From positions 1 to 64,000 of the forward strand of contig CAVQEQ010000002.1 of NCBI GenBank assembly GCA_963711565.1: a stretch of 64,000 bases of DNA, read 5' to 3'. The DNA comes from an uncultured delta proteobacterium (GTDB taxonomy: Bacteria; Desulfobacterota; Binatia; Binatales; Binataceae). The notes beneath the pieces are model-generated. The model was given only the letters and a program-made list of their open reading frames with translations. It was not told the DNA's origin and did not search any database. Shown here one piece after another: positions 4,540 to 33,460 of the stretch; position 1 is the first letter of the stretch, and each line of letters begins with the position of its first letter. The position numbers were made by a program, and so were the translations under genes.

Positions 4540-4553
4540 ACGGAAGGCCTCCT

Positions 4554-4895
4554 ATGAAAGGACTCAAGTTTTGCGTACTGGCCGCTTTCCTCTTCCTCGG
4601 AGCCTGCAACGGCAAATCCGACGACACCAGTGCTCCGCTCGCCGCCCTCCAATCTCCAAACGCCGCAGAAAACTACGGAGATCAGTTCTGGAACGACCAA
4701 CTTCAGAGAAAAACGGAGCTTTGGGGAAAAGCGCTCGGATTTTGCCAGCAGGCCGATCACAAGTTCTTAATCAACTGTCAGCCGGTACTGGCAGCGGCTG
4801 CGCCTCGAGTTCCGTTCTCGACGACTATGCCCGCTAACGGCTTAGGCGGCGGACTCGTCCCTATCCCCTCTCCCAACGTGCAAGGGACTCATTGA
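4554..4895 (+). CDS. Lipoprotein, probable entry-exclusion protein (TrbK/EexN-like)
   Basis: Lipobox LGAC, two further Cys, located between trbJ and trbL, C-terminal motif shared with TrbJ. Confidence 0.7.
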   Translation: MKGLKFCVLAAFLFLGACNGKSDDTSAPLAALQSPNAAENYGDQFWNDQLQRKTELWGKALGFCQQADHKFLINCQPVLAAAAPRVPFSTTMPANGLGGGLVPIPSPNVQGTH

Positions 4896-4904
4896 GGATG
4901 TGCG

Positions 4905-7167: not shown

Positions 7168-7306
7168 TCCAACGTCACCCATCCAATTTAACTTGAAGGA
7201 ACGCGATGTGTGGGCCTGCGATGGTCGTCTTCACAGAGCGGAGACTACGCTAATCCGCTGTTGTGCTTGCGCAGCGCATCTAATTCCTGTAATTTATATT
7301 GGAGTC

Positions 7307-8182: not shown

Positions 8183-8637
8183 AGATTCGGCGGGATATTA
8201 GTTCCATTCCGCTCCGCACGGCGGAAGAGACTTGGTGGACCATCAGGCAGTTGGTGACTGGGCCTGGATCAATCGAAGCCGAACAATTCGACGCGGCAGC
8301 GAGTATCATGGCGTCGCTAACTACGGACGAATCATTTCGGGACGAGCCTCTGATCCTGCTGGGGGTGAGCCATCGACTCGTGATCTACCTGCAGTACGGG
8401 GCAGATGCGCTCGAAGCGGGCGAGGCGGTTGACTCACTGAATTGGAACCCGACGGCAGGAGATTGGACGCTGTACGTACCATGCGCCGCAGAGCAATTCG
8501 CTTGGGTTAAAAAAGCCCTTATGTCCCGCGCACCACGGTTCGTTCTGTTGAAACCTGGCGTCACCGTACCGGAGGGAGACGAGGAAACGGCCAAGTCAGA
8601 AAACGTAGAAATCAATTGGACGGCGTTCGAAAAATGA
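8179..8637 (+). CDS. cap8: CBASS HORMA protein (HORMA3-type)
   Basis: SIPLRTAEETW, GDWTLYVPC...WVKKAL resemble P. aeruginosa HORMA3; ATGA overlap. Confidence 0.85.
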   Translation: MKIRRDISSIPLRTAEETWWTIRQLVTGPGSIEAEQFDAAASIMASLTTDESFRDEPLILLGVSHRLVIYLQYGADALEAGEAVDSLNWNPTAGDWTLYVPCAAEQFAWVKKALMSRAPRFVLLKPGVTVPEGDEETAKSENVEINWTAFEK

Positions 8638-9140
8638 GCACGTTCACTTTCACATACACCCGGACTCACACCTCCGTTTTCGTCGCAGATAACATGCGAA
8701 ACGTCCTCCGCGACGTTGTCATGTGGAGCGGGCTTGATCCGACGAAGCTCATCGATGATTGGAGTGTAATTGGCCAAGCTATCCAGACGTGGCTGCGCTC
8801 GGAAGATCTACTGGAGATCATCATCGAATTTTTCGTGCCGGGGTCGACTAACCTGCGTGGTAGATGGGACTTCCCAATACAGTACGACGGTAGCGGCGGT
8901 GATGACGACATGTGGGTAGCACGCGATCACCTCCGGCGGACTATCGAAAAGGCGGGGCGGCCGCCCGCGAATGCTACTTATCGTATCATCCTCGTGACGC
9001 GGCTTGGGCGGCCCGACGTTTTGGGGATGGTCCCGACCACGCTGCGTTCGACCGAGGGATTTATCAGCCGTACTTCGGGCACCGCCATCGCCACGCCAGA
9101 CATTATGGCGTCGATCAAGTATTGGAGGGCTGCATCATGA
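8634..9140 (+). CDS. cap7: CBASS HORMA protein (HORMA2-type)
   Basis: THTSVFVADN, SGLDP, RWDFPIQY, GRPDV...RSTEG...YWR. Confidence 0.88.
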   Translation: MSTFTFTYTRTHTSVFVADNMRNVLRDVVMWSGLDPTKLIDDWSVIGQAIQTWLRSEDLLEIIIEFFVPGSTNLRGRWDFPIQYDGSGGDDDMWVARDHLRRTIEKAGRPPANATYRIILVTRLGRPDVLGMVPTTLRSTEGFISRTSGTAIATPDIMASIKYWRAAS

Positions 9141-10024
9141 TAAGCGTGGCGGATGCGTTTGAGACATTCAGGCAGCGGCTAGAACTGACCGAGACAGAGA
9201 GTGAGGATGCGCAACGCCGGCACAGCAGCGTTCGCGAATGTATTCGTGCACGGTTTCAAATCGACCGCGACTTTCTCACCGGCTCATACGCTCGGCATAC
9301 GAAAACGAAGCCGCTAAAAGATGTAGATATATTCTTCATTCTAGGTGAAAAAGAGAAGCAGTGGCATAGCAAGAAGCCGAACGAAGTGCTGGCGGCATTC
9401 CAAGACTGTCTGGTGAAGAGCTACGGCCGCGACCAGGTTGAGCAAGGCCGTCGCTGCGTTACGGTTGAATTCCGAAAGAGCTACCAGACAGAAGATCCTG
9501 ACGGCAAAGTCCTGAGTATCGATGCTGTACCCGCGTTTGAAGTTGGGGGTCATTATGAGATTCCGGACCGCGCATTGGGGAAGTGGATACCTTCCGATCC
9601 GGAAATTCATAAAGAAGAGGCCACTGCAAAAAACAAGCAACTGGACGGCAAGTGGGTCCCGCTCGTCAAAATGATAAAGCGATGGAATCGGGAGGCAGGC
9701 AAGCTGATCAAGCCGATGTTCCTCCTTGAGGTGATGGCTCAGGAGCTATTGGATCCTCCGTTCAATAGCTATCCAGATGAGATTCAGAGATTTTTTTCCG
9801 CAGCGCAGTCAGAAATAGAACAAGACTGGCCAGATCCAGCAGGCCTCGGACCTTTGGTCTCCGACCAAATGGACGCGGCCAAGCGTGAAACCGCTAAAAA
9901 GGCGTTCCGTGATGCCGAACGTCTTGCTGTTCAAGCTATGCGCGCGGAGCAGCGGGGTCATGTCGGAGAGGCGCTTGAACTGTGGCGCCAGATATTCGGT
10001 GGCCGATACTTCCCGACGAGCTGA
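9137..10024 (+). CDS. cdnD: CD-NTase, CdnD clade (cyclic oligoadenylate synthase)
   Basis: FLTGSYARHTKTKPLKDVDIFF, DAVPAF, WPDPAGLGP. Confidence 0.93.
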   Translation: MISVADAFETFRQRLELTETESEDAQRRHSSVRECIRARFQIDRDFLTGSYARHTKTKPLKDVDIFFILGEKEKQWHSKKPNEVLAAFQDCLVKSYGRDQVEQGRRCVTVEFRKSYQTEDPDGKVLSIDAVPAFEVGGHYEIPDRALGKWIPSDPEIHKEEATAKNKQLDGKWVPLVKMIKRWNREAGKLIKPMFLLEVMAQELLDPPFNSYPDEIQRFFSAAQSEIEQDWPDPAGLGPLVSDQMDAAKRETAKKAFRDAERLAVQAMRAEQRGHVGEALELWRQIFGGRYFPTS

Positions 10025-10031
10025 GACTAGT

Positions 10032-10808
10032 ATGGCGAACATCGCTAAACGCGAGTCGAGCGCACATGGACAAGATTTTCTGCGGCGTGCTTTCGCGGGC
10101 GTTCACAAGCTGCTTGCTCTTAAGCTTGATCATGCCGCGCAAACCATTACGCACGACGGAGAGCGCGGTGGCGTCACGGAGTCAGCGTGGATTGAAGTCT
10201 TGCGAAGTTATCTACCTAATCGTTATGCCGTGAATAGTGGAATCGTCATTGACAGTGAAGGTCATACGAGCGATCAAATCGACATCGTCATCTACGATTT
10301 GCAATATACGCCCGTACTACTCACCCAAGAGCCCCATCGATATGTTCCCGCCGAGGCCGTTTACGCCGTCTTGGAGGCAAAGCCGAACATCAACAAGCAG
10401 CGACTCGAATATGCGGGTCAGAAAGCGGCCTCAGTGCGTACTCTGAAGCGCACCTCGGTCCCGATTCCTCACGCTGGAGGGGTCTATCCGGCGAAACTGT
10501 TGTTTCCGATTGTCTCGGGGATCGTAGCCGCAGCAGTGGATTGGTCCGACGGATTCGGGGAGAGCTTTCTTAGCGTCATGGCCAGCGACGAGCTTTCTGG
10601 GGACCGCAGGGTCGACTGCGGATGCGCTCTGTCGCATGGAGCCTTTGACACGTTCGCTTCTGAAGGCGGGCTGACCTTTGGCACTCGCGAGGCAGACCTA
10701 GTGTACTTTCTATTTCGACTTCTCGACAAGCTGCAATCTCTGGGAACAGTGCCTGCCATTGATTGGAACGCATATGCTAACGTCCTACGAGTGGAAAAAG
10801 CTGGGTGA
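10032..10808 (+). CDS. nucC: CBASS effector endonuclease NucC
   Basis: YLPNRY, SDQIDIVIYDLQYTP, PAEAVYAVLEAK, LQSLGTVPAID. Confidence 0.93.
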   Translation: MANIAKRESSAHGQDFLRRAFAGVHKLLALKLDHAAQTITHDGERGGVTESAWIEVLRSYLPNRYAVNSGIVIDSEGHTSDQIDIVIYDLQYTPVLLTQEPHRYVPAEAVYAVLEAKPNINKQRLEYAGQKAASVRTLKRTSVPIPHAGGVYPAKLLFPIVSGIVAAAVDWSDGFGESFLSVMASDELSGDRRVDCGCALSHGAFDTFASEGGLTFGTREADLVYFLFRLLDKLQSLGTVPAIDWNAYANVLRVEKAG

Positions 10809-11436: not shown

Positions 11437-12204
11437 CTACGGCTGCTCTACTCTAGAAAGTCTGGGTTTAGTTGGACGCCGTTCGGCGAGGCCCAGCCCC
11501 GCGAAAGCGCAACCGTGGAATACTTGGCACGACGCACAAAGCGGCGCGCGCGCTCTGCAGACTAAAGCTGCGAAGTCGAGAATTGCCCAGTTCACCGAGA
11601 GACAGTTCTCAACGTCCACAACCTCCGCCGCCAGTCTTTGAAGGTAAGGGTCATATCGCAGATCAGCCAGATTCCGCGGGCCGAAGTACCTTTCCAATAC
11701 TCTCGCCATGTTCACGTCTAACAACGGCTGTCGTTCCCCGTGGCAGATCGTCAGAACAGCGTTCGCGATGTACTGACCCACTCCGGCGAGCGCTTCGATT
11801 TCCTCCCTCGTTCTTGGAAAGCGCCCCCCGCGGATCGCCAACTGTTGCGCTAGCCTCTTCAATGAAGCGGAACGGCGACGCCATAAGCCTATCGGTCGAA
11901 GAAAGTTCTTTAATTCTGATTGATTCGTGCGCGCGAGAGACTTCCATGATGGAAATTTTCGCACGAAAGCTCCAAAGAAGAGTGCGACTGTCTCGGCCCG
12001 TGTGCGCTGAAGAAGTGTCTCAGCCACAAGTTTCTGATACGTACTAGCTGCTTTACGCCGCCACGGGAGGTGCTGTCTGCCATTTTTTTCGGCCCATCCC
12101 AGAACGAGCCGACGAAATTCAGCCACTCTCTCCAATGCCAATGATTTTTCGCCCGTACGAGCATTGGCGCTGGATAGGACCAGTCCTCGCGCAGTCCTCG
12201 CCAC
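11437..12204 (-). CDS. HhH-GPD DNA glycosylase with 4Fe-4S motif (Mig/T:G-mismatch-like, MutY/Nth superfamily)
   Basis: LPWR, ETLLQRT, GVGQYIANAV, LDVNMARVLERYFG, C-x6-C-x2-C-x5-C; no MutT-like C-domain; GTG 12204 behind GGAGAAGGA is the preferred start. Confidence 0.85.
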   Translation of the reverse strand: MARTARGLVLSSANARTGEKSLALERVAEFRRLVLGWAEKNGRQHLPWRRKAASTYQKLVAETLLQRTRAETVALFFGAFVRKFPSWKSLARTNQSELKNFLRPIGLWRRRSASLKRLAQQLAIRGGRFPRTREEIEALAGVGQYIANAVLTICHGERQPLLDVNMARVLERYFGPRNLADLRYDPYLQRLAAEVVDVENCLSVNWAILDFAALVCRARAPLCASCQVFHGCAFAGLGLAERRPTKPRLSRVEQP

Positions 12205-12250
12205 GTGGCGCGATCCTTCTCCAAAATGGCCGCGCCCTTCCGGCTTGGCT

Positions 12251-15200
12251 TCAGTGCGCAATGTTCCGGGTTCGCGCAAGATACTTCCTACCAGAATTCG
12301 TGAGCTCCCTACCTTTAGGAGTCATTTGGACGAGGCTGAGCCGTTGGACGAGGTGAGGTTCTACTTCTGTCAGTATTCGATCTCTATCTACGCTGCCTAA
12401 CATGCTGAGCAACCGTTGTTCGCCTAACGGCCCGCTCCTTTCGAGCAGTTCGAGATAATTCACATCGAGATGAGCCAATCCGTTCTCATCGATGCCGCGG
12501 GTCCGACGGACTTCCTCCAAATGGTCGTCAACGGATCGGTCCTGGAATTCGGACACAAGTGCCTCAGTTTCAAGCTCTTTGGCCAACTCAATCGCAATGC
12601 GCGGAACCGATCTTCCGTAACGCGCGATCTTGCTTAGAACCTCAGGTGGCCAAGCGGCGAAAGCGCCAGCGAGCATCTGCGCCACTTCCGCCTCCGTGTA
12701 AGGATGCAAGTACACTTCCGTGCATCGGCTTCGAAACGCGGCGTCCAGTTCGGAACTTCGAGTAGTTGCGAATAGGTGCGTCGCCTGTCCCAAAACGGCT
12801 ACCCTATCATCCAGAACCACGGTACGGTCCCGACTTTCTAGTACGGTTAAAAAACTCTCCTGCACCGCGCGCGCCACGAGGTGAACTTCATCTACAAATA
12901 CGATGAGCGGCGGATATATGAGGCGCGCTTTCCCATACTGCGTCCCCTCTTTCGTCGGCCGCGAATTGGCCTGTTGGAGCTCTGCATCAATTAGCTCGAA
13001 GAGTTTTTCCCGCGAAGTTACTGTTCGCCCATCAACCTTGATGAAAGGAAGCGCCAAAGCAGAAGCAACCCTGCGAGCCAACTCCGTCTTGCCCGTGCTC
13101 GGGTTTCCAACGAATAAGTAGTTCTTGGGAAGGTGGGGCGGTCTTTCGATCAGTGCACGGAGTAGATCCCTCTTTAGAGAATCTACGGCCGGTCGGTTCC
13201 CGATGAACCCATCGAATGCCCTGTTTACGCGTTCTCTGACCTCCACCGGAATCGCCGAATGCGAGGTGGTCGGCTGGGGCAGCCCTGCCTCGACCTCCTC
13301 CTCATGTGTCGGGACTTCGCCAGGCTGCGCTGCGCCGCCCTTCACCGATACAAGCTGAGGTAGCAAGGCACTATGCGCGGGCGCGGTGAGAGGTTCGATG
13401 CCGACAGCTTGCGCAGAAGTTTTTTGACCGCCGCCATCTTGTTGCGACCGTGCGGCTTCGGCAGAACCGCAGAGTTGCCAACTCTCGATTCCTTGATCGA
13501 CCTCAACGGATGGTGAAGTTCGTTCTAGCAATGCCTTCGCATCAGCTCTACAAACCACCAGCGTCTCATCAAGTCCATCGTTGTCGAGGTCTAGTCTCCG
13601 CGAGCTTGGCGACGTATCGAACGCCAACAGGCGTCCTTCCTCGTTGACGATGATCTCGGCGGCCCCCGAGTACACCGCCGCAAGGATTGATTCGTGGCGT
13701 TTCGCCCATTCGTCGCTGGTCCGCCCGGTCACTTGCTCGTCTGCATAGACGCGGATTCCATAGTTCAGGACGTGAGCCAATAACCCTTTCGCGCACACAT
13801 TCCACAGGCCGGTTGGTGGGGTAGCAGCCCAAAGCTTGCGAAGAAAACCGCCAAAACTGCTTGCTTGCTTCAACCAATCGTTCAGGTTCGTTTCGCCTGC
13901 GACAGACTCTCGAAACTTGATCTCTATCGGAGTGATGTAGATCGAAATCTGGCCCGACCCTTCGCCGATGTGGACGCAAATGGCCAAGATATCGCCTCTC
14001 ATGAGTTCCGCGTCGTCACCTAGCAGCGACTGACGCACCTTCCGGAAAAGGCTCGTAAATGGGTCCACTGGAACTAGCACTGCCAAGGTATTAGCAGTTG
14101 CGACGGGAAGGCGGCATTCATGGCGTTGTGTTCCGAAAACGTCTTGGAGTAATCGTGCGCCCAGCAGCACGCCGATCTCACCGCGAGCATGAGTCCCACC
14201 CGACGCGAGCCTTTTCAGTATCGGTATGCCGCGCCGTGACACCTCTCCTAGCACTTCATCTACCGGGGGCGGATTCGCGCTCAGGAGCCTCGTTGCGGCT
14301 TCGACGGTCCGCCTGACTGCACTCGAAGGCTTTGCGAGCTTGTAATAACCAACCCGCTGTTCAGAGATCCCATCGGCGAAAGGGAGTTCGTAGTCCCATA
14401 GATACGAACCATGCACGGGCGCATTGCGTGCGAAGCAAGCCGGATCGATCTCTGCGGAGGAGACGACGACCAAACCCGCTTGATCCAAGCGATTCCCGAC
14501 CGCCACATGATTCGGGGCGAATTCTACAAGCGCCTCGCCATTCTTGCTGGATGCAAGCTCCTCGATCTCTGCAACGCAGGCCGATCCTAGACCTGTAAGG
14601 CCTTCTCCGGATCTCTCGACACTATGGATTCTCGTCTCGCGTATCCACGTTGCCGAGTCCCGATCTGTTCGTATTCTGCTCCCGATCAAGCACCCTTCGC
14701 TCGCGGGTGACCGCAATTCCGCGGCGGAGAGGCGAGGTTCGCGAATACCAAGCTGATCCAGGATGATAGCGTCGAGGTTCGCCGGTAGCTGCTGCTCGTA
14801 GCGGTCATACCACAGGACGCGACCGTCCGAATCCTCCGCAAGATTCGCGAGCTCCTCGTTCCCGGGTTGATCTTCTGGCCGCCTTCCGTCGAACACGTGG
14901 AGCTCTCTTGGCCACGACGGCGGCGTATCAACCGAAAAAACGTCCTGCGACCAGCTTACAATTCCTTCCGAACAAGTGCTCTGGCCTTCCTGTTCTCCCA
15001 CTACGCCCAGACGAAGTACCGATCTGGCGGGAAGCATATTACTGACGTCCTGTAGCGTGCGCTTCGCCTGCGCGGAGGTAAATCCACCCTCGAATCCGCG
15101 TGCTCCCACACCGAAAGTGCGAAGTAAGCTAGCAGCACTGCTCGATCGCAGACGCTCGATCATTCGAGAATTCCAAAGAAGCGACCAATATGGGTCTTCA

Positions 15201-17464
15201 CAAGGAACCGAAATGAACGTCGTCCAAAATGGATCACCACCCCCCCGGAAGATCGGCCATGCGGCTATATCAGGGGAGCGGTTGGGGTCAAGTAAGCCAG
15301 CCAGTGGACATCTCTGACGCAGGCCCGCAGTCAAGAGCTTTTGAGCATTAAACATCCACGCGAGCCTAGCCGGATGTAGGGGAGACAAAAGCATCGCGAT
15401 TGGTTCGCCCCCAGCGGTTGGAGCTCCCGCGGCTGGGTTCGGCTCAGCCTCGAGAATCGCCACACAGTCGAACCACATTGCCGCGGAAGGCTCCGCTCGT
15501 AACCACTCCAAATACGCTCGTAGGTAAGCTTCCGCGCTGCTGGTCAATTCGTCGCGAGAGATTACCTGTTCGACGAGCTTAGTGCGTTCGGTATCGAGTA
15601 TGCGACGAACTTCCTCTCTAGCCGTCCGAACCGCTTCCGGTACTTCGCTGTTTCGAAATCTCGGATCAAATTGCGGTACGAACTGGCCCAGACGCGGATC
15701 CGACCAGTTCAGATCGGCAACGCGCATGACGCTTAGGTCTCCTGCGACGAGGATGGGATGCCAGCTTTCGGAGTTTGATAGGAGCGCAGTTTCGAGCCCG
15801 CGGATCATCCTTTCATGCGGAATCACTGGACTTGGACGTCCTCTCCCCCGCTGGTGGGCAACAACCAATGCTTCGAAGTATGTGCCAGGCGCCTCTCCGA
15901 CGTTTTCTTGAACAGTGACGAGGACTTCGCTCTTGCCGACTTCAACCCCGCCAGCGTCTAGAAATATGAACGTCAACTGGCTTTCCTCTTCAACCGTCAG
16001 AGTTAGGAGCGAAATACCATCTACAACAGGGGATTCTGCCTCTGCCGAGTCCGAGCAGCGGACGACGCTAGTGGCTGGTCCTGAATAGACGTAAACTCGA
16101 TGAGTCCCTGTCGATTCGAGCTCGATCTCCTGAGCCCAATTCGATCCGCTTCTCTCAGGAACAGTTATTCGAGCGGCATTCGGGGATGAAACGAGACCGG
16201 GCGCTTCTAACTGCGCAAGAGATACGAGATCGATTCGGCTGCTCCTAGCACCGCTGTCCTCCGCCTGATACCGCAGCGGGCGATCGTGCGCTGGAGGGTT
16301 AGGATCCGTAAATGAGGTTGGGCTCGCAGACGGAGCGGGCGCCATAAGCTCAACAAGGCGCCTTCGCCCAACGCGCCGGGAGATCGAGAGTCCTTGAAAC
16401 GCCGGAGCGCCTTCGCAAGTGATCTCTAGATCCGCTGCGTCCCGAACGACGACCGGCTCACCCCGCGCCGACGTGTTGAGGTTAATCCGGTTACTGCAGG
16501 TGAGTCTTATCCGGGCCTGAGGTGCGCGCGCGCCGACCTCGTCTAGGAGTTGTCCTAGCCGAGCTTCATCCAAGGTCGACCACCAATCGGGACGAGAACT
16601 CGCCTCTGACGGGCGAAATGCCAGCGTGCGGAGCCTGTTGAATCCACCACCGGACCCGGCGGATTGCTGAAGGTGATTGCGCAATGCCTCCAACGCTGGC
16701 GTCACCTGAGCGCCCGTGGCCGTCGCCTTCAATTCCTCGAACCCCCCTTCGAGCCCACGCTCCTCTAAATACTCGGCCAACTCTACGACGGCCTGATATG
16801 CAGATTGAGGGCTCGAACCGACAGAGCCGGGAGACGGTAAACCGCACGAACGGTATACGGCAACAACCGGAGGTTCACTGAGCGGGAAACCGTTAGTCAA
16901 GTAGCTCAACGCGTCCCAGGGGGCTCCCGAGCGCTTGTCTGTATCCAGACCTTGCGCATCGTGCCAGATGCAATGCAGCGCTTCGAAGATCAAGTTCTCC
17001 GAGATATTAATTCTGGATGCTATCCGCAAGCATAGGCTGTGCATCAGGCGATTCGGAGATTTGGCGCGGCCTTCGAACGCGATCGGTGTCGAGAGCGTAT
17101 CGGTCGCCGTCCGAATCGATTCCGGCCGATCCCACATCTCGGGCTCTACGAGTATAAGTGAGCGCTCGTAGCTGTTACGTGCATTGACTGCGTAGTCCCA
17201 AGTACATGCGCAGCTTCCCAATTGGCCACTCTGAATCCTGGGACTATTCGATATGAGCAAAACTGGAACAGTCAGCGTATCTCCGCCGGCACCGATCAGC
17301 CAATCTGTCGTTCCATCTTTTGTCAGGCGTGCGAACAGCGATTGGAGCGACTTCGCCGACGGACCGCAGACGACGGGCTGAAGCCGGGCGTTCCCGTCCA
17401 CCTGTCGCAGTCGGAGTACGTATTCCTCCAGTTCTTCTTCCAACAGTTCCGCGAGCGAGGTCAT
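12251..17464 (-). CDS. 1737-aa DptH/DndH-like protein with PD-(D/E)xK motif and C-terminal RuvB-like AAA+ module
   Basis: LSPLHP motif, RGDILA...PIEIK, then FIGN, GNPSTGKT, FVDEVH, FATTR, PRIA, EPHL, TPKGRELT. Confidence 0.75.
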   Translation of the reverse strand: MTSLAELLEEELEEYVLRLRQVDGNARLQPVVCGPSAKSLQSLFARLTKDGTTDWLIGAGGDTLTVPVLLISNSPRIQSGQLGSCACTWDYAVNARNSYERSLILVEPEMWDRPESIRTATDTLSTPIAFEGRAKSPNRLMHSLCLRIASRINISENLIFEALHCIWHDAQGLDTDKRSGAPWDALSYLTNGFPLSEPPVVAVYRSCGLPSPGSVGSSPQSAYQAVVELAEYLEERGLEGGFEELKATATGAQVTPALEALRNHLQQSAGSGGGFNRLRTLAFRPSEASSRPDWWSTLDEARLGQLLDEVGARAPQARIRLTCSNRINLNTSARGEPVVVRDAADLEITCEGAPAFQGLSISRRVGRRRLVELMAPAPSASPTSFTDPNPPAHDRPLRYQAEDSGARSSRIDLVSLAQLEAPGLVSSPNAARITVPERSGSNWAQEIELESTGTHRVYVYSGPATSVVRCSDSAEAESPVVDGISLLTLTVEEESQLTFIFLDAGGVEVGKSEVLVTVQENVGEAPGTYFEALVVAHQRGRGRPSPVIPHERMIRGLETALLSNSESWHPILVAGDLSVMRVADLNWSDPRLGQFVPQFDPRFRNSEVPEAVRTAREEVRRILDTERTKLVEQVISRDELTSSAEAYLRAYLEWLRAEPSAAMWFDCVAILEAEPNPAAGAPTAGGEPIAMLLSPLHPARLAWMFNAQKLLTAGLRQRCPLAGLLDPNRSPDIAAWPIFRGGGDPFWTTFISVPCEDPYWSLLWNSRMIERLRSSSAASLLRTFGVGARGFEGGFTSAQAKRTLQDVSNMLPARSVLRLGVVGEQEGQSTCSEGIVSWSQDVFSVDTPPSWPRELHVFDGRRPEDQPGNEELANLAEDSDGRVLWYDRYEQQLPANLDAIILDQLGIREPRLSAAELRSPASEGCLIGSRIRTDRDSATWIRETRIHSVERSGEGLTGLGSACVAEIEELASSKNGEALVEFAPNHVAVGNRLDQAGLVVVSSAEIDPACFARNAPVHGSYLWDYELPFADGISEQRVGYYKLAKPSSAVRRTVEAATRLLSANPPPVDEVLGEVSRRGIPILKRLASGGTHARGEIGVLLGARLLQDVFGTQRHECRLPVATANTLAVLVPVDPFTSLFRKVRQSLLGDDAELMRGDILAICVHIGEGSGQISIYITPIEIKFRESVAGETNLNDWLKQASSFGGFLRKLWAATPPTGLWNVCAKGLLAHVLNYGIRVYADEQVTGRTSDEWAKRHESILAAVYSGAAEIIVNEEGRLLAFDTSPSSRRLDLDNDGLDETLVVCRADAKALLERTSPSVEVDQGIESWQLCGSAEAARSQQDGGGQKTSAQAVGIEPLTAPAHSALLPQLVSVKGGAAQPGEVPTHEEEVEAGLPQPTTSHSAIPVEVRERVNRAFDGFIGNRPAVDSLKRDLLRALIERPPHLPKNYLFVGNPSTGKTELARRVASALALPFIKVDGRTVTSREKLFELIDAELQQANSRPTKEGTQYGKARLIYPPLIVFVDEVHLVARAVQESFLTVLESRDRTVVLDDRVAVLGQATHLFATTRSSELDAAFRSRCTEVYLHPYTEAEVAQMLAGAFAAWPPEVLSKIARYGRSVPRIAIELAKELETEALVSEFQDRSVDDHLEEVRRTRGIDENGLAHLDVNYLELLERSGPLGEQRLLSMLGSVDRDRILTEVEPHLVQRLSLVQMTPKGRELTNSGRKYLARTRNIAH

Positions 17465-19002
17465 CGGCGCGCCTGCTCCCTAGGCGAATTGAATGGATCG
17501 ACTAACACTCGTCCACCGTAGGCATCAGGGCTATCAATTGTCAGCCCGAGTGCAGCAAGGTTACCTATCAGCCGGCCCGATTCTAACTCTTCCGACGCAA
17601 TGCGGATCCCGTATGCGGCCAAGTGTTTCCGCAGGTCGTCTATCGTGGAGGGCACACCGGGTCTTGCAGAACACACGCAGTGGACGATTACCAGCAACAT
17701 GTTAGGACCAGGCTGCAGGAGCCAGATCCGTTGTCTGGGTGATGTCAACGGCGCCAAATAGGCTTGATCATACGAACGCTGTGCCTGATCGAGCGGCGCA
17801 ACTTGACGTGTTACGTAGCGCAAAAATTCCCTGATGTTCTTCGGAGGCCCCTTTTTTCCTGCCGCAGCGCGAGAATTCCTGTCAACCAATTTCTCGCATC
17901 GTTCTTGCAGCCAAGCCTTAGGGCTAGGGGCTACTTTAAACCGCTCGCGGCGTAGGTGCTGGAGGAAATTTACGATTTGAGCTGCACAGCTGCTCGAATC
18001 AGACGACCCGAGCGGCGTAGGCCAACCTACGTTGGCATCGTCCAGCCTGTGCAGCATTAAGTTGAGTCCCAGTCGTGCGCGCACATACCCTTCGAGCGTT
18101 ATGCTAAACGCGCGCTCCGTGTCTCGACCCACCTCCAGAAAAGCTCCGGAGCCGTGATGCGATTCGAATAATATCGCTTCTACCTCAGATTCGGTTGGGA
18201 TACTTCCGTCTCCAAGTGCGTCAAGACTCAAAGACCAGCAGTTCGCGTTAAGGCGGCACAGCCATAGCACTTGAGCGACCGCGGCTAATCTAAGTTCCGC
18301 TTCCAAAACTGCCACCCACTGCTCCCGACTCAATGTGCGCTTTAATCTCAGGACCTGCGGAAGATCGTCTACGAATCGTTCCGCTGGCGCGAAAGGCTCT
18401 TTCCGAATTTCTCGGTGAGCCACGTGCTTCCACTCGCCAAAAGCTGGTGGTCGCGGCCTCTCATTCTTTGGCGGAGGGACCGCAGCCAAGGCTTCCTGCA
18501 AGAACCTCGCGAATACGTCGTCCTCTGACCCAACGTCTAGGGCCTGTGCGAACTCCGGAAGAAGGGCCTCGTACCCGGCCCGGCCTGCACCGGAAGCGAT
18601 ACACGCCAGAATAAAATTACCTGGCGTCCAACGGCCACGCCGGGCACCTAGTACGCCTCCGTGTGCCGCGAGAAACGGCACGGTCGGTGAGAGATTCGGA
18701 AATCGGCTTCTCGGCAGGGCAGGACTGCGGATACAACCGGCATCTCCAAAAAGCCTATCCCAAAGCAAAAGAGGGGCACCGAGAACGTTCTTGCTGGTCA
18801 ACTGGTTCGGCAACTGAGGGATCAGTTCTAAGTCCACCGTCCGATCAGTGTTGGCGCCGGCAAGACCCAGCACGCGGCAAGTAGAGGCGAGCATAACCTC
18901 GCCTGTCGTCCATTCCGGCGCCGCTGGAAACTCGAGAGCAGACTTTTGATAAGACAAATGGTCTTGTTGGAAGGGATGTGACTCGAACTCGGTAACGCTC
19001 AT
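17461..19002 (-). CDS. DptG/DndG-like protein
   Basis: Size and position between DptF-like and DptH-like genes; wHTH-like C-terminus LAAYGI...LGLTIDSPDA. Confidence 0.6.
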   Translation of the reverse strand: MSVTEFESHPFQQDHLSYQKSALEFPAAPEWTTGEVMLASTCRVLGLAGANTDRTVDLELIPQLPNQLTSKNVLGAPLLLWDRLFGDAGCIRSPALPRSRFPNLSPTVPFLAAHGGVLGARRGRWTPGNFILACIASGAGRAGYEALLPEFAQALDVGSEDDVFARFLQEALAAVPPPKNERPRPPAFGEWKHVAHREIRKEPFAPAERFVDDLPQVLRLKRTLSREQWVAVLEAELRLAAVAQVLWLCRLNANCWSLSLDALGDGSIPTESEVEAILFESHHGSGAFLEVGRDTERAFSITLEGYVRARLGLNLMLHRLDDANVGWPTPLGSSDSSSCAAQIVNFLQHLRRERFKVAPSPKAWLQERCEKLVDRNSRAAAGKKGPPKNIREFLRYVTRQVAPLDQAQRSYDQAYLAPLTSPRQRIWLLQPGPNMLLVIVHCVCSARPGVPSTIDDLRKHLAAYGIRIASEELESGRLIGNLAALGLTIDSPDAYGGRVLVDPFNSPREQARR

Positions 19003-19013
19003 AGTCGCTTCCC

Positions 19014-21113
19014 CTAGGCCTCCCGACGGAACTCGAGCTCACCGTTGTAATCGAGCACTAACCTGCCGATCTCTTGTCCGGACTCCCTAAACTCAACCCA
19101 TACCTGACCATCTGCGAGCCTTTCCTTGTCGCGCGATAGGCCAGCCGCGTAACCGTGACGAAGCCGCTCTAGCATCGCTGCCACCCCAGAGGGGAGACTC
19201 CCGTTGGCACAGCCATCTGACCTCCGTCGCAGCGCGACGTACAACTCGAATGTAAGCGGCAGAACGCTATCGCCTACTTCAATACAAGGCATGTCATAAG
19301 CAGGGCGCCCAGGCTTAATGCCCGGTGCTGGCCGCGGACGAATCCCGCTCCTCGGTCCTACAATGATGACGCTTTGCGTCATTCGAGTTTCAGCCTGTCC
19401 AAACGACGAGACCAACGAGCCAGCAAATTGATTGCCTCCCAAAAGATTGGCTACAAGCTGAGCTATTCTTGATAGCCTGCTTTGGTCTCGTAAACTTTCC
19501 TCGTACTCACTTAACAGTCCTTCGTTTGCATGCCTTCCAGCGCTCACCCCGATAATTCGCTTCACCACTGCCGAACTTAAGCGGCGCAAAAATTCGATTG
19601 CAGTTACTGCACTCTGCTTTTCTCGCCCCAAGACGTCCCATTCTTCCTCCGCGCACGCCAGCATCTGGATGAAGCTCTGGCCGAGCTCCGACAATTGCTC
19701 CTTGAATTCATCAAGCCCTTGTCAACATCCCTGCCCAAACTCGTTCTCGATTCGCTTGAGTAAGTCGTTTTCCGAATCACCGCACCACCGAGCCGGGTCG
19801 ATCCACAATCGGTGAACTCCGCGAAGCAAGATCCGAATATGCTTCGAGCTATCTGGTTCGGTGCGCCGGATAGTGTCGCAAACAGCTCGTGTCACCGTCG
19901 CTCCGGCGTTAGATGCTTCCGATCTAACCACGCGCAATTCCTCTTCGGCCGCTAACGTTTGGAACAAACGTTGCGAATACAGGCCACGAGCCAACGGGAT
20001 GATTGCGGTTGCGCGCTGAGCATTATTCGCGGCGTTGCGGTACCGCGACACGAGGTCGTGGACCCACGAACATGGATCCGGATAGGAATCGAAATCTGAC
20101 CACTGTCCGACGATCAGTTCTGCCGTTAGAGAAAACGCATCACGGAAGGACCATCGTTGCCCGGTGGCTAGCTCGCCGCGTCTGAGAATGCGGAAGAGCG
20201 CATCTGAAACCGCCTCGTCGCGAAGCGATTCGGCGTTCTCGCGCATCGGGCACAGCCGTCTCGAGTCGCAATCGTTGCATCGTCCATCCACCTCCCACTC
20301 TTCGACTGCCGTGGCACTCAGGACTATCTCGCTTATGGGCATCCTGCCATCACCGCGCGCCGTCAGGCTCTCAACGTCCAAAGGCCAGCACGTGAAACGC
20401 GGATCGGCAGCCAATGGCCAACACGTTGGTTGGTTTTCCGACAATGCTTCTAAGCCGAGAGCGGTAGCTCGAATGATCTGGTCCAACGCCTCGACAACCG
20501 GACTTCCAGGATATTCGTTGTGCGCCCTTGCTAACGCTCGGGCGAGCAGGCCGCGGTTCGCGCAGCACACGAAGACAGGCAGTTCGCGCTCTGACGAAGT
20601 GACCAAGTCTGCCACGTCCTCTACTAGCAAGTCGGCCGCGTCGGCGATGGCGTTATCGCTGGCCGAAGCGTCCTGAATCAGGGTTAGTCTTCGGATCGTC
20701 AGGCCGAATCGACTCCCGGAAACACCAACATCTCCGCCCGTTATGTTAACCCGTCTCGGCAGCAGCTTCCCGACCCCGAATCTCTGCCGGACGGCTGCAA
20801 CCAACGCGCCGCCGGAATCTAGATTCAAATCGAGCCTCTCCACGAAATCTTGAACCGCCTCCGACTTGCCGTTGCCGGGTCCGCCGATGAGGAAGATCCA
20901 ACGTGGGGCGGTCTCGTCGCCCCCGGCGATGCGAGAAGCTAAATCCCGGAGCCTCACGATGAGCCCAGTTAGAACCAGCGAGCCGATCGGGTTCCCCCAT
21001 CTCGCAAACGGCACACGGACACCGCCACGATCGTGTCCGTGCCAGCCCAGAAGATCTGCTACCCATTCGTTTTTGTTAGCTGGCACGAGCGCGTACCTCG
21101 TCCGATCCGGCAA
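19014..21113 (-). pseudogene. DptF/DndF-like P-loop NTPase interrupted by one in-frame TGA (19722-19724)
   Basis: GGPGNGKS, QDAS, CANRGLL, CxxCx5CP; the 463-aa and 226-aa ORFs share a frame and are joined by GC*QGLDEFKEQL. Confidence 0.72.
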
Positions 21114-22413
21114 CCATCTCGCTCCAAGTTTCCATCAGCACGTATCCCATTACTTCCGCGACAAACGGTGGCATTGCGTTCCCCACCTGGGTGTAGCGCG
21201 GACACTCTCGTTTCCGGCGCATTCCGCCAGTCGTGTATTTTCCCATGAACCCATACCAATCGGGGAAGGACTGCAGCCGCGCGTATTCGCGGACCGTCAG
21301 TATCCGTGGTTCAGAATAATGCAGAAAATCATCTGGCAACGTGGTGAGAGTATGGGAGGGTTTGTCCGGATCAAGGGGCACGATACAGTGCTTTCGAATC
21401 CCCAGACGATCACGGTCAGCCTGCGAAAGGCCAACGCCCTTCTTGCACGTCTTCAGGATTTTCGCGAAGTGGTCGATGGTATCAAGCTTGTGCCTGGGTA
21501 GTCTTAGGCTATTGGGAGCTTTCCCGCCTAACCCGGCGTGTAGCAGCCTCTGGTACGGAGTTTTCGGCCCCTCGTAATCGATCTGATTGAATCTGGGAAA
21601 ATCGTCGCATTCGACAAAATTCTTACCGGTAACCTCCAGGTCAGAGATTGCCTCCCGAGCCGTAACTGCCCTATCGATCGGCAGATCCTTCGATCTCAAG
21701 AACTCAATTCGCTTCGCCGAAACCAGCTGAAAAGGATTCTCCGGTTTGAAATTCGATCCGCGCGTGTCAACGGCGATCACAAACTGCCGTGGGCGCAACT
21801 GGGCGACTCCAAAATCAGAGGCGCTGAGGCATTCATCAAATACTTCGTAGCCCAACTCCTCCAAGCTATCGCGTAATCGCGCCAAAAACGGCCGCGCCGG
21901 TCTCCCGACCTGCGTCCGCCGCTCTTTACGTTTCGTTTTGCCGAATTCTGTAGCGATTCCCTTCACGTTCTCGAAAAGCACTAGTCGCGGCCTGATGGCG
22001 TCTACCATCTCAATGTATTGCTCGAACATGCGGTTCCGCGGATCATCTCGTCGGCGGCGCCCCGCATATGAAAAACCCTGACATGGCGGCCCCCCCGCCA
22101 CGAGGTCGATCTCTCCCCTCAGCTCGCCTAACTGCGAAGAATACTTTTTGAGGAAAGTACTGAGTCGGCAGGATTCCTTCGGAAGCCAGGATGGCCACTG
22201 AAACCGAAATCCGCCAGCGCGATCTATCAAGTTGGATTTGAGTGTCTCGAAGGCGTTCTCTTCTCTTTCAACCGCCAACACTCCTTGCCATCCGGCGGCC
22301 ATGAGTCCCAGCGAGAGACCCCCGCACCCGGCAAACAAGTCGATGAAGGTGGGTCCGTCCGCGATCTCATACCGCGAAACGCGAGCCCTTTCCTGCCCCA
22401 TGTTCCGTTTCAT
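21076..22413 (-). CDS. DNA (cytosine-5)-methyltransferase
   Basis: Motifs DLFAGCGG, GGPPCQGFS, ENVKG, QLRPR, TVREYARLQSFPD, QVGNA; exact start uncertain (22401-22434). Confidence 0.95.
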   Translation of the reverse strand: MKRNMGQERARVSRYEIADGPTFIDLFAGCGGLSLGLMAAGWQGVLAVEREENAFETLKSNLIDRAGGFRFQWPSWLPKESCRLSTFLKKYSSQLGELRGEIDLVAGGPPCQGFSYAGRRRRDDPRNRMFEQYIEMVDAIRPRLVLFENVKGIATEFGKTKRKERRTQVGRPARPFLARLRDSLEELGYEVFDECLSASDFGVAQLRPRQFVIAVDTRGSNFKPENPFQLVSAKRIEFLRSKDLPIDRAVTAREAISDLEVTGKNFVECDDFPRFNQIDYEGPKTPYQRLLHAGLGGKAPNSLRLPRHKLDTIDHFAKILKTCKKGVGLSQADRDRLGIRKHCIVPLDPDKPSHTLTTLPDDFLHYSEPRILTVREYARLQSFPDWYGFMGKYTTGGMRRKRECPRYTQVGNAMPPFVAEVMGYVLMETWSEMVAGSDEVRARAS

Positions 22414-22511
22414 GTCTACGAGTTCTTCACTCAAGATCTGCTCTTCCCCGACAAGCCGACGGCGAGGGACCGACCCGAATCAGGTCGGGGCGCCGAACTC
22501 GCGTGCACTCT

Positions 22512-22982
22512 CTACTGCCGGCCAGCGGCCCTCTCGAACTCGGCGTCGAGTCCTGTCACTTCGTCTGGGTGGATTCTCTTTTTTCGCGCAGCCAAACCCC
22601 GGCTTCCCTCCGACACCAATTCGACCATCACGAACTGCCCCTTACATGGACCCATCACTTCGAGCGCGTGTTTCCTTTCCTCGTTAACGTGGAGGACACG
22701 TCCTTTCTTGCGATCCAGAACAACAAAGAGGCCCCGACTAAGAGGATTGAATCCCATTGCTCGCAGGTCCTCGATCAGATGGCGCGAACGCTGCAGCGAA
22801 AGTCCGCCCCTCTTCAATCGCACCAAATTCTCGAGCTCGGCTATTTCCCGTTCTTCCAGTCGAACTGCAGCGCCCGACTTGCCCGTCCTGCCACGCACAT
22901 CCACGAGTCCCCGCTCAACCCACCCGGCGAGCGTCGAATAAGGGACCTTCTGTTCCCTTGCCAGTTGTTTGAGGGTCGCCAC
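22512..22982 (-). CDS. MerR-like HTH protein, possible operon regulator
   Basis: TLKQLAREQKVPYSTLAGWVERGLV...LKRGGLSLQ. Confidence 0.6.
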   Translation of the reverse strand: MATLKQLAREQKVPYSTLAGWVERGLVDVRGRTGKSGAAVRLEEREIAELENLVRLKRGGLSLQRSRHLIEDLRAMGFNPLSRGLFVVLDRKKGRVLHVNEERKHALEVMGPCKGQFVMVELVSEGSRGLAARKKRIHPDEVTGLDAEFERAAGRQ

Positions 22983-23516: not shown

Positions 23517-23891
23517 ATGTCAGTTAACAAGGTGATCGTGATCGGCAATCTGGGAGCTAACCCCGACATTCGTGCTCTGCCGTCCGGGCAAAACGTGGCG
23601 AATTTCTCGTTGGCGACCACGGAGCGGTTTACGGACCGCAACGGTGCGAAACAGGAGCGCACCGATTGGCATCGGATCGTTGCATTCGGGCGGCTGGCCG
23701 ATACGTGCGAGCGGTTCCTGAGCAAAGGCCGTCAGGTTTACGTCGAAGGACGGCTTACTACCCGCCAGTACGAAGCCAAGGACGGCAGCGGCAGACGCTA
23801 CCGGACTGAAATCGTGGCGCGGCAACTCCGCCTGCTCGGCAAGCGCGCTGACGCGCCCAAGGCTGAAGCATCCGACGACATCCCGTTTTAG
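23517..23891 (+). CDS. ssb: Single-stranded DNA-binding protein
   Basis: SVNKVIVIGNLGANP, TDWHRIV, KGRQVYVEGRL, DDIPF tail. Confidence 0.96.
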   Translation: MSVNKVIVIGNLGANPDIRALPSGQNVANFSLATTERFTDRNGAKQERTDWHRIVAFGRLADTCERFLSKGRQVYVEGRLTTRQYEAKDGSGRRYRTEIVARQLRLLGKRADAPKAEASDDIPF

Positions 23892-23966
23892 TTCCCCACC
23901 ACGCGACGGGAGAGCCGCGCAAGCGGTTCTCCTCAACCATCCAAACCACAATCGGAGATCACGAAA

Positions 23967-24839
23967 ATGGACGTTTATCAAATCATAACCGACAAGATCA
24001 TCAATCTGCTTGAAAGCGGCGTCGTACCTTGGCGCAGGCCGTGGACCTCAACCGGACTGCCGCGCAACCTTGTCAGCAAGAAGCCATATCGCGGCGTCAA
24101 CGTTTTTCTGCTTTCGGCCTCGAAGCACGTTTCACCGTTTTGGCTGACCTACCGCCAGGCGAATGAACTTGGCGGACACGTCCGCAAAGGCGAGGAGAGC
24201 ACGATCGTCGTTTTCTGGAAGGTCGAAGATTTGAAGCACAGTACCGAAAACCTCGACAACGAACAGACCGAGGAGAAGACGCGCCGGCGGTTCCTGCTCC
24301 GCTACTATAGGGTTTGGAATCTGGAGCAATGCGAGTTTCCGCAAGCCGTGCTCGACAAGCTGCCGAAGATCGAAACGCACGAGCATGATCCAATCGAAGC
24401 GGCCGAGCGAATCATCGCCGGAATGCCAAACCCCTCAGAGATTCAACATACGGGCTCAAAGGCATTCTACAGCCCAATCACTGATCGAATCACCTTGCCA
24501 CCGCGCGAGCTCTTCGCGAGCGTTGAGGAATACTACGCAACGGCTCTGCACGAGACCGTTCATAGTTCAGGAAGTCCGAAACGCCTTGCGCGAGAAGGGA
24601 TATGCGAATCCTCGCCCTTTGGCTCCCCGGTATATTCCAAAGAAGAGATGATCGCGGAAATGGGAGCCGCTTACCTTTGCGCCGAGGCCGGAATCTCAAA
24701 TGCAGTCATTGAGAATCAGGCGGCTTATGTCGCCGGCTGGCTCAGGAAGCTTCGCGAAAATCGTAGGCTCTTGATCAATGCCGCCGCTCAAGCGCAGCAA
24801 GCGGCGGATTATATCCTCCGCAGACTCCGCCTCTCGTGA
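23967..24839 (+). CDS. ardC: ArdC-family ssDNA-binding antirestriction protein
   Basis: VPWRRPW, YRGVN, WLTYRQA, VRKGE, LHETVH, EEMIAEMG, AAYVAGW. Confidence 0.9.
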   Translation: MDVYQIITDKIINLLESGVVPWRRPWTSTGLPRNLVSKKPYRGVNVFLLSASKHVSPFWLTYRQANELGGHVRKGEESTIVVFWKVEDLKHSTENLDNEQTEEKTRRRFLLRYYRVWNLEQCEFPQAVLDKLPKIETHEHDPIEAAERIIAGMPNPSEIQHTGSKAFYSPITDRITLPPRELFASVEEYYATALHETVHSSGSPKRLAREGICESSPFGSPVYSKEEMIAEMGAAYLCAEAGISNAVIENQAAYVAGWLRKLRENRRLLINAAAQAQQAADYILRRLRLS

Positions 24840-25048: not shown

Positions 25049-26002
25049 TCACTGACTCGATATCCTCAGGTGAGCGCCGACATACCCAACGAGGATTCGT
25101 TTGGAGACCGGGAAATCGAAAAAGTGAATTCGCGTGTCTCCTCTCTTCAGATGCCATTCAAAGACCCGATACTCGCCATCTGGACATCGAAACCTTCTTT
25201 CATCGCTGTACATATTCAACGTGGATTGACTTTCGCCAGACGCGCTGGGCAGCCCATGAATGTCAAAATTGCCAGTGTCCCACGTTTCACAATAGCATTG
25301 CAGATCTTGGAGCCCCCGCATCACTGCTCTAAAACGTGGCTCGCTCCCTCCGAGAGCCTTTATCTGATTTTCGACTGGCTCACAAAAGTCGAGATTCGGG
25401 AAGAGAGATACTCTATCATCCCACAGTTCGAGCCCACTTGCGGGCGGAGCAGGTTTCTTGCGGTCCAACCATTCAACGTGCACTTCTAAATGAACCGCTC
25501 GGGAAGCGTGCCGCACGCTAAGGATCCGCGTCTCGAAGTCTTCGTTGTTGATCCAGAGCTTTTCAAGGCTTACCGAGTCAACGTTCCATTGGTCGCTAGA
25601 CCGGAAGCTGATCGCGAGGCCATCTATCGAAAAGGCCACTGACAATCCTTGTGCGGGCTGATCAGCACACCTATATTCCACATTCTGAGCGTCGAGTTGC
25701 TCGACCGGGACACAGTCGCTGTAGTCGCTGCGCTTATCGACGAGCGTTTTTATTCGCAAACGTTTTTCGTGGTCTCCGTGATGGTACTCGGCCAGCCAGC
25801 GACCGACAGAAAATCCGGAACTGATCTGCACCTGGGGAAAGTAAGGCGGAGTAACAAGAATCTTCTTTCCCTTGATTCGATGATCGGTGAGAATATTCGA
25901 GAATTCTTCGAGGTACCTTTTCCCACTATTCAAATCTGGCGCTATCGGAGTTGTAGACAATTCATTGAACACCAAGAATACGGTCATTCTAGTTACCGCC
26001 AA
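25049..26002 (-). CDS. Third gene of Menshen-like system (NsnC-like putative effector)
   Basis: Overlaps ATPase gene; C-terminal FEWHLK...RIHF...VGYVGAHL. Confidence 0.65.
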
Positions 26003-27104
26003 GCAGTTGATCTAAACTCCGTTCGATTTCATCGAAGAAGCCTTCGGGCCATTGAGACAGCCTGCCATTCTCGTCAATATTTAATAAGGTCAGGGAAGGT
26101 GAGCTTCCGCCTGCCTCCCATTTGCTGTGATAAAGCGCGACCTTTGACGGATCAACCTTTTGTCCTTGGACGGCTAGCCGAATTCCGTTCAGCACGTGAT
26201 CGCTGTGAGTCTCCAAGAGGATCTGAATGCCGGCCGCGGATGCCCGAGCCAGAAGGTCCCCCATCTTGAGCTGTCCACGGGGGTGAAGATGAGCTTCCGG
26301 ATTCTCAACGATAATTAGACTTCCAGAGTGGGCTGAGAGGACTGAGACAACAATCGGCAACGCGTATGTGATGCCGAAGCCGACATTGGTAGCGCGATAT
26401 TGTGAACTGGCAACCTGCTTCTGTCCCAGAGAATAAGCAACGCTGAATGTCATAAGGTCCATCTCGGAGTAGCGTTTCACGTTCAAGCGCACGCCCGGAC
26501 TTATTTCCGTCATCCATGCCTCCACTTGTGACTGGAGGGTGTTTGAAGTGGCAGTCGGATGGCGTAACCCTCGTAACTCGACGTTTTCCGAGCCAAAGAG
26601 GGAGAGGAAGTGCACTGCGAACTCGCCGCTTGAACCTAATTGGCGGTGATGTCGAACCTCGTAATCGGACATACCGAAAGATGTTCGAGGTCCAATGCGC
26701 TCGGCGCGGAGGTATTGAAATTCGTCCCGGAAGAGGCTCGTGTTCCAGATCTCTCCCGTGTGCTCATAACCATTGACGGCTAGCACATCACTCTCCTCAC
26801 GATAGGCGAATCGCAGCTTAAGATGTGCAGGGAGGTCGTCCTTTAGTTCGAACGCTATTTCGTCGGTATCAGCTTCTTCAAACAGCACGTCCTTGGCAGT
26901 TCCTAGCTCGGCTAGTTTGCCATTGAGTGTCAACCCGACATTTGGTAGCAGATTCTCAAGGTAAGATTGCCTCAACAAAATGAGGGCCTGGATGACGGTC
27001 AACTTTCCAGAACTATTTAGACCGGCGAGCAGAGTCAGCGGCTTAAGGACGACAACTTGTTGTTTGAAACATTTGAAATTGTCTAATTCGATCGACTGGA
27101 TCAT
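25989..27104 (-). CDS. ABC-type ATPase with DUF3696 (NsnB-like); Walker A reads GKLT
   Basis: [41 protein letters not shown]. Confidence 0.85.
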
Positions 27105-30918: not shown

Positions 30919-31007
30919 AAAACCACCTGCGAGAGTGCGAACAAGCGCTCAGGCCGCGTCGATTCTCCGCGCACCGTGCCCTTTGTCTCGTATTCTTTTC
31001 TAACAAA

Positions 31008-31874: not shown

Positions 31875-31877
31875 TCA

Positions 31878-33353: not shown

Positions 33354-33460
33354 TCTGTTGTGTTCAGCATGTATCACAACACAACAGTCCTGCACAACCC
33401 GATCCCAGGCGCAGATTTGAACCTCAAAAACCGTTACTTCCTGTGCACGCCACCTCCCCC

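Follow-up and report, generated by a model that had tools for sequence, protein, structure and literature searches.

Restriction by a trio of F, G and H proteins is known from several bacterial systems. In DndFGH (also DptFGH) the three proteins, of about 500-700, 450-500 and 1700 amino acids (aa), are encoded in that order; SspFGH, according to the accessible text of PMC8092258, has SspABCD phosphorothioation as its partner; and in MADS, whose model has MAD6, MAD7 and MAD8 as mandatory components (bioRxiv 2023.03.30.534895, in its available text), an F-G-H-like trio in the same order is tied to DNA methylation as the self mark. The accessible part of PMC13662399 names N6-methyladenine (m6A) as the mark by which MADS distinguishes host from phage DNA, and 'Dnd' occurs nowhere in the available portions of these two MADS texts. 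Here we analyse a locus at positions 11437-22982 of a stretch of 64,000 nucleotides (the window; contig CAVQEQ010000002.1) from an uncultured delta proteobacterium of the Binataceae, in which an FGH-like trio stands beside a C5-cytosine DNA methyltransferase (MTase). It is a real, conserved and apparently undescribed FGH branch with C5 methylation, T:G repair and a motor of the RuvB clade.

In the available text of Rakesh et al. (2024; PMC10853773), DndF is a derived P-loop kinase with an Asn in Walker B and an optional zinc insert in the lid. It also occurs there in fusions with NERD and kinase domains, which fits the layout of MAD6. DndH is described as an inactive SWI2/SNF2 P-loop domain, a helix-turn-helix (HTH) and two beta-sandwiches at the N-terminus, then an inactive MTase fold, an intact restriction endonuclease (REase) domain and a C-terminal HerA/FtsK motor. 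Self/non-self recognition by FGH complexes is disputed between phosphorothioation-coupled and standalone action; the same excerpted source takes the standalone view of DndFGH, and links cytosine methylases to CxC ABC-ATPase systems, not to FGH. Compared with DndFGH, the present locus has no phosphorothioation genes in operon or host, and its H protein is RuvB-ended where DndH is described as always HerA/FtsK-ended. Compared with MADS, it has a single-subunit C5 enzyme in place of the m6A MTase MAD2 and the specificity subunit MAD5, lacks MAD2, MAD3, MAD4 and MAD5 altogether, has an F without the kinase extension, and carries a T:G repair gene and a RuvB motor.

The F, G and H proteins

The genes of the trio lie on the minus strand as F (19014-21113, about 690 aa), G (17461-19002, 513 aa) and H (12251-17464, 1737 aa), and both order and sizes are kept in related loci, in line with the sequence-only reading of this DNA, which had likened them to DptFGH. 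Structure models were made of G and of residues 520-1335 of H. G, mostly helical with a winged-helix-like C-terminus, gave an AlphaFold2 model with a predicted local distance difference test (pLDDT) score of 95, whose sole Foldseek match in the PDB at E<=0.001 was DndG (7EXX; E 1.4e-4, TM-score 0.40/0.45, 539 columns). This suggests that G shares the DndG fold. Profile comparisons by hhalign used templates of three or four sequences each from DndFGH, SspFGH and MADS loci, with identities checked by NCBIfam: three of the four MAD sets pass the MAD7 and MAD8 cut-offs, L224 fails, and L228, one member of the DndF/G set, is not confirmed. F matched the C-terminal core of MAD6 at 96.5%, SspF at 95.5% and the DndF set at 77.5%, with 0.3% for the control. 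It contains a P-loop (GGPGNGKS) and a Cys-rich insert (CxxCx5CP), and Walker A, a C-x-N-R-G motif and CxxCx5CP are conserved in its family, features consistent with a DndF-like derived P-loop kinase with the optional zinc insert. The likeness to SspFGH lies in matches of F to SspF models, weak for F itself in PADLOC (E 1.3e-5) but found for 28 of 57 aligned F members (best 1.9e-9); when the hidden Markov models (HMMs) were run against two canonical DndFGH loci, F alone scored.

The N-terminal 1335 residues of H (13460-17464, minus strand) are predicted to form a DndH/MAD8-like core with a PD-(D/E)XK motif. Residues 520-1335 matched the MAD8 set at 90.3% over 602 colinear columns and SspH at 27.8% (control 0.0%), and the model of this region (pLDDT 89.7) matches class I S-adenosylmethionine-dependent MTase folds (best E 3.9e-4). 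The H consensus has no NPPY/DPPY and no FxGxG motif, and its D-ExK is invariant. The nuclease motif comprises E1096, D1158, E1181 and K1183. The last three never vary in the sets of 65 and 57 sequences and are the same in RuvB and HerA types. H would therefore contain an eroded, presumably inactive MTase-like fold and then an REase motif, which agrees with DndH as described in the available text of PMC10853773. The earlier observation that no classical REase gene was recognised in the window needs correcting in that H itself has a PD-(D/E)XK motif.

Because of the fold match of G, the profile matches of F and mid-H, and the MTase fold with REase in H, the trio is best placed, from profiles and models, as a separate, divergent branch within the FGH superfamily. 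On these criteria MADS and Ssp come closest to it, and it belongs to no named system. No strong PADLOC or NCBIfam match to F, G or H was found, the weak SspF match of F being the best, and NCBIfam gave no match at all for F or G; TIGR03236-8 match none of the three, and the MADS NCBIfam models give nothing at E<=0.01. TIGR03237 had no match in 301 genomes of the phylum and none in the controls, and is thus uninformative. The F and G profiles match no Dnd protein among PDB sequences, Pfam has no match to G or to the distal half of F, and one of 87 G members matches MAD7 (E 0.033). MAD6-8 are represented in the locus by remote profile homology only. The sequence-only reading as a whole is supported, none of the four contrary outcomes that it named in advance having been found: the trio does resemble DndFGH (G by structure, F and the middle of H by profile), and the locus is no full match to a system named in PADLOC or NCBIfam. 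Its claim of novelty holds in part. The RuvB-bearing form was not found described in the literature searched, but methylation-coupled FGH is already known as MADS, and the concept is therefore less new than first held.

Among the MADS loci scanned, L229 (L229:7907-19001) is a variant whose F is short (643 aa) and lacks the kinase, and in which MAD2/MAD5 separate MAD7 from MAD8; no protein matches the locus H family better by HMM than its MAD8-like protein (E 2e-9).

The F frame of 699 codons contains a TGA at codon 464 (window 19722-19724). Flagged in the sequence-only reading, the triplet is present in the assembly, and were it a true nonsense codon the system would be dead in this genome, with MTase and glycosylase still working; we think this rather unlikely, and it would touch one copy, not the family. 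All full-length F relatives aligned are continuous across the site, L024 having Arg. The near-identical run X1 (contigs at least 99% alike) has G at window 19724, giving CGA, on one contig of depth 2.7, and a relative from another study also has CGA, 11 bases from the contig end. Each run thus contributes a single contig of short reads at depth 2.3-2.7, which leaves some room for a nonsense codon. Six differences between X1 and the window were counted; the four listed (17747, 19724, 20747 and 20748) all restore GTCGAC, and the nearby NsnB has a Walker A reading GKLT over GTTGAC where GTCGAC would give GKST, both of which argue against a dead copy. A genome-wide miscall check found GKLT in none of 30 P-loop motifs and no excess of gene-splitting TGA in a GTTGAC context, the latter in favour of a real stop. 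Since two low-depth short-read contigs give Arg, the TGA is probably an assembly miscall at GTCGAC with Arg intended, and a long-read miscall at a modified cytosine may be its cause. Window positions tied to GTCGAC are 17747, 19724, 20747-20748 and about 27001, where assembly and short reads differ on the central CG.

C5 methylation as a candidate self mark

The sequence-only reading had proposed that the neighbourhood MTase-F-G-H-glycosylase should be surveyed for recurrence, and the trio order together with the MTase is indeed kept across related loci. The gene set recurs in metagenome-assembled genomes of at least six bacterial phyla. A search with H, covering the 8000 best candidates, gave 77 proteins, namely the query, 69 others with RuvB_C and seven without it (four of these with PF10412); seven of the 77 bear the JGI label 'DptH'. 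G has 244 related clusters at the 50% identity level. A genome scan with the H alignment yielded 23 loci, of which 18 include H sequence (partial in two), in Chloroflexota, Acidobacteriota, Planctomycetota, Gemmatimonadota, Latescibacterota, an alphaproteobacterium and others, and from a metagenome scan with the G alignment the best 80 of 220 confirmed stretches were used. No G relative was found on viral contigs. Both G and H are present in 79 loci, and 33 of these are evaluable, the others being duplicates, truncated within F or the motor, or flanked by less than 1.8 kb; 18 have a RuvB-type motor, 14 a HerA-type and one a second-HerA-type. All were found by H or G queries, not by the MTase; they are related to one another, and locus counts are not counts of independent events.

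The MTase of the locus (21076-22434, minus strand; PF00145 E 5e-49, TIGR00675 above cut-off) is the candidate self-marking enzyme. Every evaluable locus has a C5-MTase no more than 3.5 kb from the trio (18/18 RuvB-type, 14/14 HerA-type and 1/1 second-HerA-type; 33/33), bearing out the expected co-occurrence, and the PCQ and ENV motifs are present in all 59 locus MTases. The linkage persists despite changes in MTase position, strand and subfamily. Judging by gene annotations and sizes, two plasmid matches to the MTase have the same layout; in one of them vsr follows an 'ATP-binding protein'. None of the 79 loci has a DndC, DndD or DndE homologue, and none a MAD2-like or N6/N4 MTase homologue by phmmer. 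The earlier statement that no dnd or ssp gene was recognised in the window also extends to the host: neither DndC nor DndD was found in the genome (94.9% complete), SspB/C/D and DndC/D/E queries gave no tblastn match there, and no dndBCDE cluster that could supply a mark from elsewhere was found. DndD exceeded its cut-off in one of ten carrier genomes, on another contig. Gene linkage of this kind suggests that 5-methylcytosine (5mC) is the self mark.

With moderate confidence, we therefore read the operon as a restriction-modification-like defence in which 5mC-marked self DNA would be spared and F-G-H with its RuvB motor would attack unmarked DNA; anti-phage activity is predicted from the gene content. 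The C5-MTase would methylate a sequence site in host DNA, and this site would be bound by G and by the eroded MTase-like part of H, which would sense whether it is methylated. If the DNA is unmethylated, the RuvB domain would oligomerise and move along the double strand without RuvA, dispensable here because the domain is tethered to H, and the PD-(D/E)XK domain would nick or cut the invader. F may act as a nucleotide-binding regulator or scaffold, and the glycosylase, or Vsr in sister loci, would mend T:G mismatches arising by 5mC deamination.

Several points weigh against this reading. The full-length H profile reaches just 10.7% with MAD8 and 5% with SspH, and H gave 3.9% (E 0.011) with a 36-sequence DndH alignment, colinear over 230 columns; BpuSI, the published structural match of DndH, is absent among the listed matches of H 520-1335. 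The match of G to 7EXX is modest (TM-score 0.40, root-mean-square deviation 10.2), and its sequence profiles are insignificant (MAD7 15.2%, SspG 1.3%, DndG 0.3%). MTase subfamilies with divergent target recognition domains (TRDs) adjoin related trios, so that trio specificity must change in step, and a target site for the locus MTase could not be assigned. Finally, Rakesh et al. propose DndFGH as standalone (PMC10853773, in its available text).

Were the same true here, F-G-H would be a sensor-nuclease triggered by invader structures or nucleotides, with the MTase and repair gene co-selected but not read. The frequent decoupling of DndFGH from modification modules, as given in the accessible part of PMC10853773, and the shifts of the MTase in position and subfamily would both be expected of such a nuclease. 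Retention of a C5-MTase in all evaluable loci, with no MAD2-like or N6/N4 MTase homologue in the 79, is hard to account for unless there is functional dependence, and we consider standalone action unlikely.

GTCGAC was considered as a target of the locus MTase and set aside as unproven. No other 6-mer of the host is as strongly depleted (observed/expected, O/E, 0.24), but it was not assigned to this enzyme because the depletion is common to same-genus genomes with no C5-MTase match: four such genomes without a PF00145 match have O/E of 0.10, 0.37, 0.57 and 0.68 (100 kb each). Carrier genomes have 0.14, 0.90, 0.05 and 0.27, and L024, whose MTase TRD is 75% identical, has 9 GTCGAC sites in 13.5 kb. 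The depletion is a genus-wide trend, and CAGCTG (0.42) and GACGTC (0.56) are low too. The host also has several N6/N4 MTases, one with a 71%-identical counterpart in the most GTCGAC-depleted non-carrier, and two other C5-MTase loci (G000:C4:1399803-1401800 and G000:C1:1042830-1044711). One of the two is followed by HNH-like and Vsr-like open reading frames (ORFs; named from sequence), and the other is split into two frames beside a 243-aa ORF.

RuvB-clade and HerA-type motors

The C-terminal part of H (12251-13270, minus strand) is a RuvB-clade AAA+ domain with a winged helix (PF05491 E 3.6e-11; NF000868 E 3.2e-23), AAA and RuvB_C lying at about residues 1450-1729. The best PDB matches of the H profile are all RuvB, with E down to 2.4e-24. 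Walker A (K1459), Walker B (D1525, E1526), sensor I, the arginine finger (R1580), R1622 and a winged-helix GR are invariant in 65 H sequences, and Walker A and B, sensor I, arginine finger and winged helix align with RuvB of RuvABC. The motor nevertheless differs from that RuvB in its fusion to a nuclease and in several features of its own. Housekeeping RuvBs form a separate clade (support 1.0), the hairpin is shortened in all 17 H-fused domains, when set against 11 housekeeping RuvBs, at the point where RuvB has 'IGEGPAARS', and an insert of 20-24 aa specific to the clade precedes Walker B. NCBIfam RuvB matches fall below cut-off (75.6 bits for TIGR00635, cut-off 299). The host retains a normal ruvC-ruvA-ruvB on contig C4.

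Full-length H proteins from the loci end in a RuvB-clade motor in 35 of 61 cases and in a HerA-type motor in 26. In an unrooted FastTree tree of the H N-terminus (58 sequences, with four duplicates excluded) the HerA types group together at support 1.0, and L031 falls among the RuvB types. The H of L031 (L031:11650-17253) has another HerA-like motor, with a weak mad8 match (E 1.9e-17), a secondary swap. The grouping of the HerA types and the position of L031 imply at least two motor swaps, and RuvB and HerA motors appear, from these sequences, to be interchangeable on the same H N-terminus. The HerA-type sisters match DndH models over the motor (E 2e-69) and may already be in the supplement of PMC10853773. 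In all four SspH-type proteins scanned, the C-terminal domain is FtsK-like.

Alternatively, the RuvB domain might be a targeting device as well as a motor, leading the nuclease to branched DNA such as Holliday junctions, forks or integration intermediates, with 5mC as a secondary guard. The domain is indeed RuvB-clade with a winged helix, the same clade is also found on DndE and on a PD-(D/E)XK domain, and Rakesh et al. suggest, in the available text of PMC10853773, that captured motors localise defence to their source process in the invader. A generic translocase role is favoured by the exchange of RuvB and HerA on the same N-terminus, and no RuvA-like gene was noticed in the loci, though no profile search for one was made. 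The junction specificity of RuvAB is supplied by RuvA, to which the hairpin tip of RuvB binds, and that tip is missing in the H motor. Junction targeting is accordingly distinctly improbable in our estimate.

The clade extends beyond H. It is fused to DndE in L021:6072-12750, L022:998-7670 and L023:547-7207, in operons with a cysteine desulfurase, a DndD-like ATPase, a DndC-like 3'-phosphoadenosine-5'-phosphosulfate reductase and, in two of those scanned, HNH; these fusions parallel the published DndE-HerA fusions. A PD-(D/E)XK-RuvB fusion lies behind a 708-aa ATPase (L020:7000-10981), and a stand-alone copy lies beside an N6/N4 MTase (L019:8853-11813). P0077 is a distant H of 1829 aa that combines a RuvB domain with a nuclease region resembling SspH (E 1.4e-7); here another FGH branch may have acquired RuvB independently. 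'RuvB' is absent from the available text of PMC10853773 and of bioRxiv 2025.10.09.681413, and the literature searched, which covered few subscription papers, holds no description of a RuvB-bearing DndH, a DndE-RuvB fusion or a 5mC-coupled FGH.

The repair gene, the operon and its setting

The glycosylase gene (11437-12279, minus strand; PF00730) encodes a single-domain HhH-GPD protein with a 4Fe-4S cluster, likely of Mig type. Catalytic Glu and Asp and the Fe-S motif are present, and there is no MutY C-terminal domain, chains stopping 6-69 aa past the Fe-S motif. Its closest known counterpart is the T:G mismatch glycosylase Mig.MthI, whose gene adjoins that of a C5-MTase. Both are single-domain proteins; Ala occupies the position of Mig.MthI A50 (MutY V45) in 40 of 40 family members and Tyr that of Mig Y126 in 30 of 40 by pattern, but the position of Mig L187 (MutY Q182) has Trp, not Leu, in 31 of 40. 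T:G repair is the likely role, with activity on 5mC or A:G as the alternative; in the accessible text of PMC2714593, specificity is not fixed by these residues alone. Among the evaluable loci the glycosylase occurs in 16 RuvB-type, three HerA-type and the one second-HerA-type, and Vsr in none, seven and none, respectively, so that one or the other is present in 27 of 33 and Vsr, not the glycosylase, adjoins 7 of the 14 HerA-type loci. The two occur together in none of the 79.

The six ORFs of the sequence-only reading were all found at 11437-22982, co-oriented on the minus strand. The first, a MerR-type HTH protein and probable regulator (22512-22982, minus strand; PF13411 E 5.5e-6), does not belong to the conserved operon, a homologue being present in just one related locus (L024), and the core consists of five conserved genes: C5-MTase, F, G, H and glycosylase. 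Of the two gene overlaps proposed, that of G and H at 17461-17464 is real, but that of MTase and F at 21076-21113 hinges on the choice of F start. The GTG at 21086, preceded by GAGG, appears to be a better fit to the N-terminus of F homologues than the listed start, and the glycosylase probably starts downstream of its listed TTG.

The locus (GC 55-58%, against about 61% genome-wide) has type III CBASS on one side and Menshen on the other, with VirB4, VirB6, ArdC and an integrase nearby, and the setting is a mobile defence island. CBASS occupies window 6448-10808 on the plus strand (TRIP13, two HORMA proteins, cyclase and NucC, with a CapP-like peptidase upstream) and the Menshen NsnABC operon 25049-28369 on the minus strand. 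SoFic, a second Fic, a tetratricopeptide repeat protein, an SNF2 helicase (DrmD-like) and a sacsin/TmtA-like protein follow at 29480-40470, the C-terminal part of the last running on in another frame (39805-40470). VirB4, VirB6, an ORF resembling single-stranded DNA-binding proteins (named from sequence), ArdC and a tyrosine integrase lie at 1310-5993, 23517-24839 and 43760-44962, components of an integrative conjugative element around the locus whose left part is cut off by the contig start.

With such neighbours, and with one relative on a conjugative plasmid, the module might chiefly stabilise a mobile element by post-segregational killing, anti-phage defence being secondary. The flanking systems are themselves anti-phage, as are the characterised relatives, and both roles could coexist; stabilisation as the chief role is very unlikely.

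Direct profile comparison ties MADS to the Dnd/Ssp restriction trio. There is, in our view, an even chance that DndFGH, SspFGH, MAD6-8 and the present family are one restriction machine that came to work with three chemically distinct self marks (phosphorothioate, m6A and 5mC) and drew its motors from two P-loop ATPase families unrelated to each other, alongside a RuvA-free RuvB defence clade serving several systems as translocase. F, G and H are weakly annotated (PADLOC 2.0, NCBIfam 20), so that such loci are probably missed or mislabelled. The family extends the published idea of HerA/FtsK capture to an AAA+ motor known from recombination, and it offers natural swaps of RuvB for HerA on one nuclease body. 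Its pairing with a single-gene C5-MTase makes the disputed question of self-recognition by FGH complexes testable by one point mutant.

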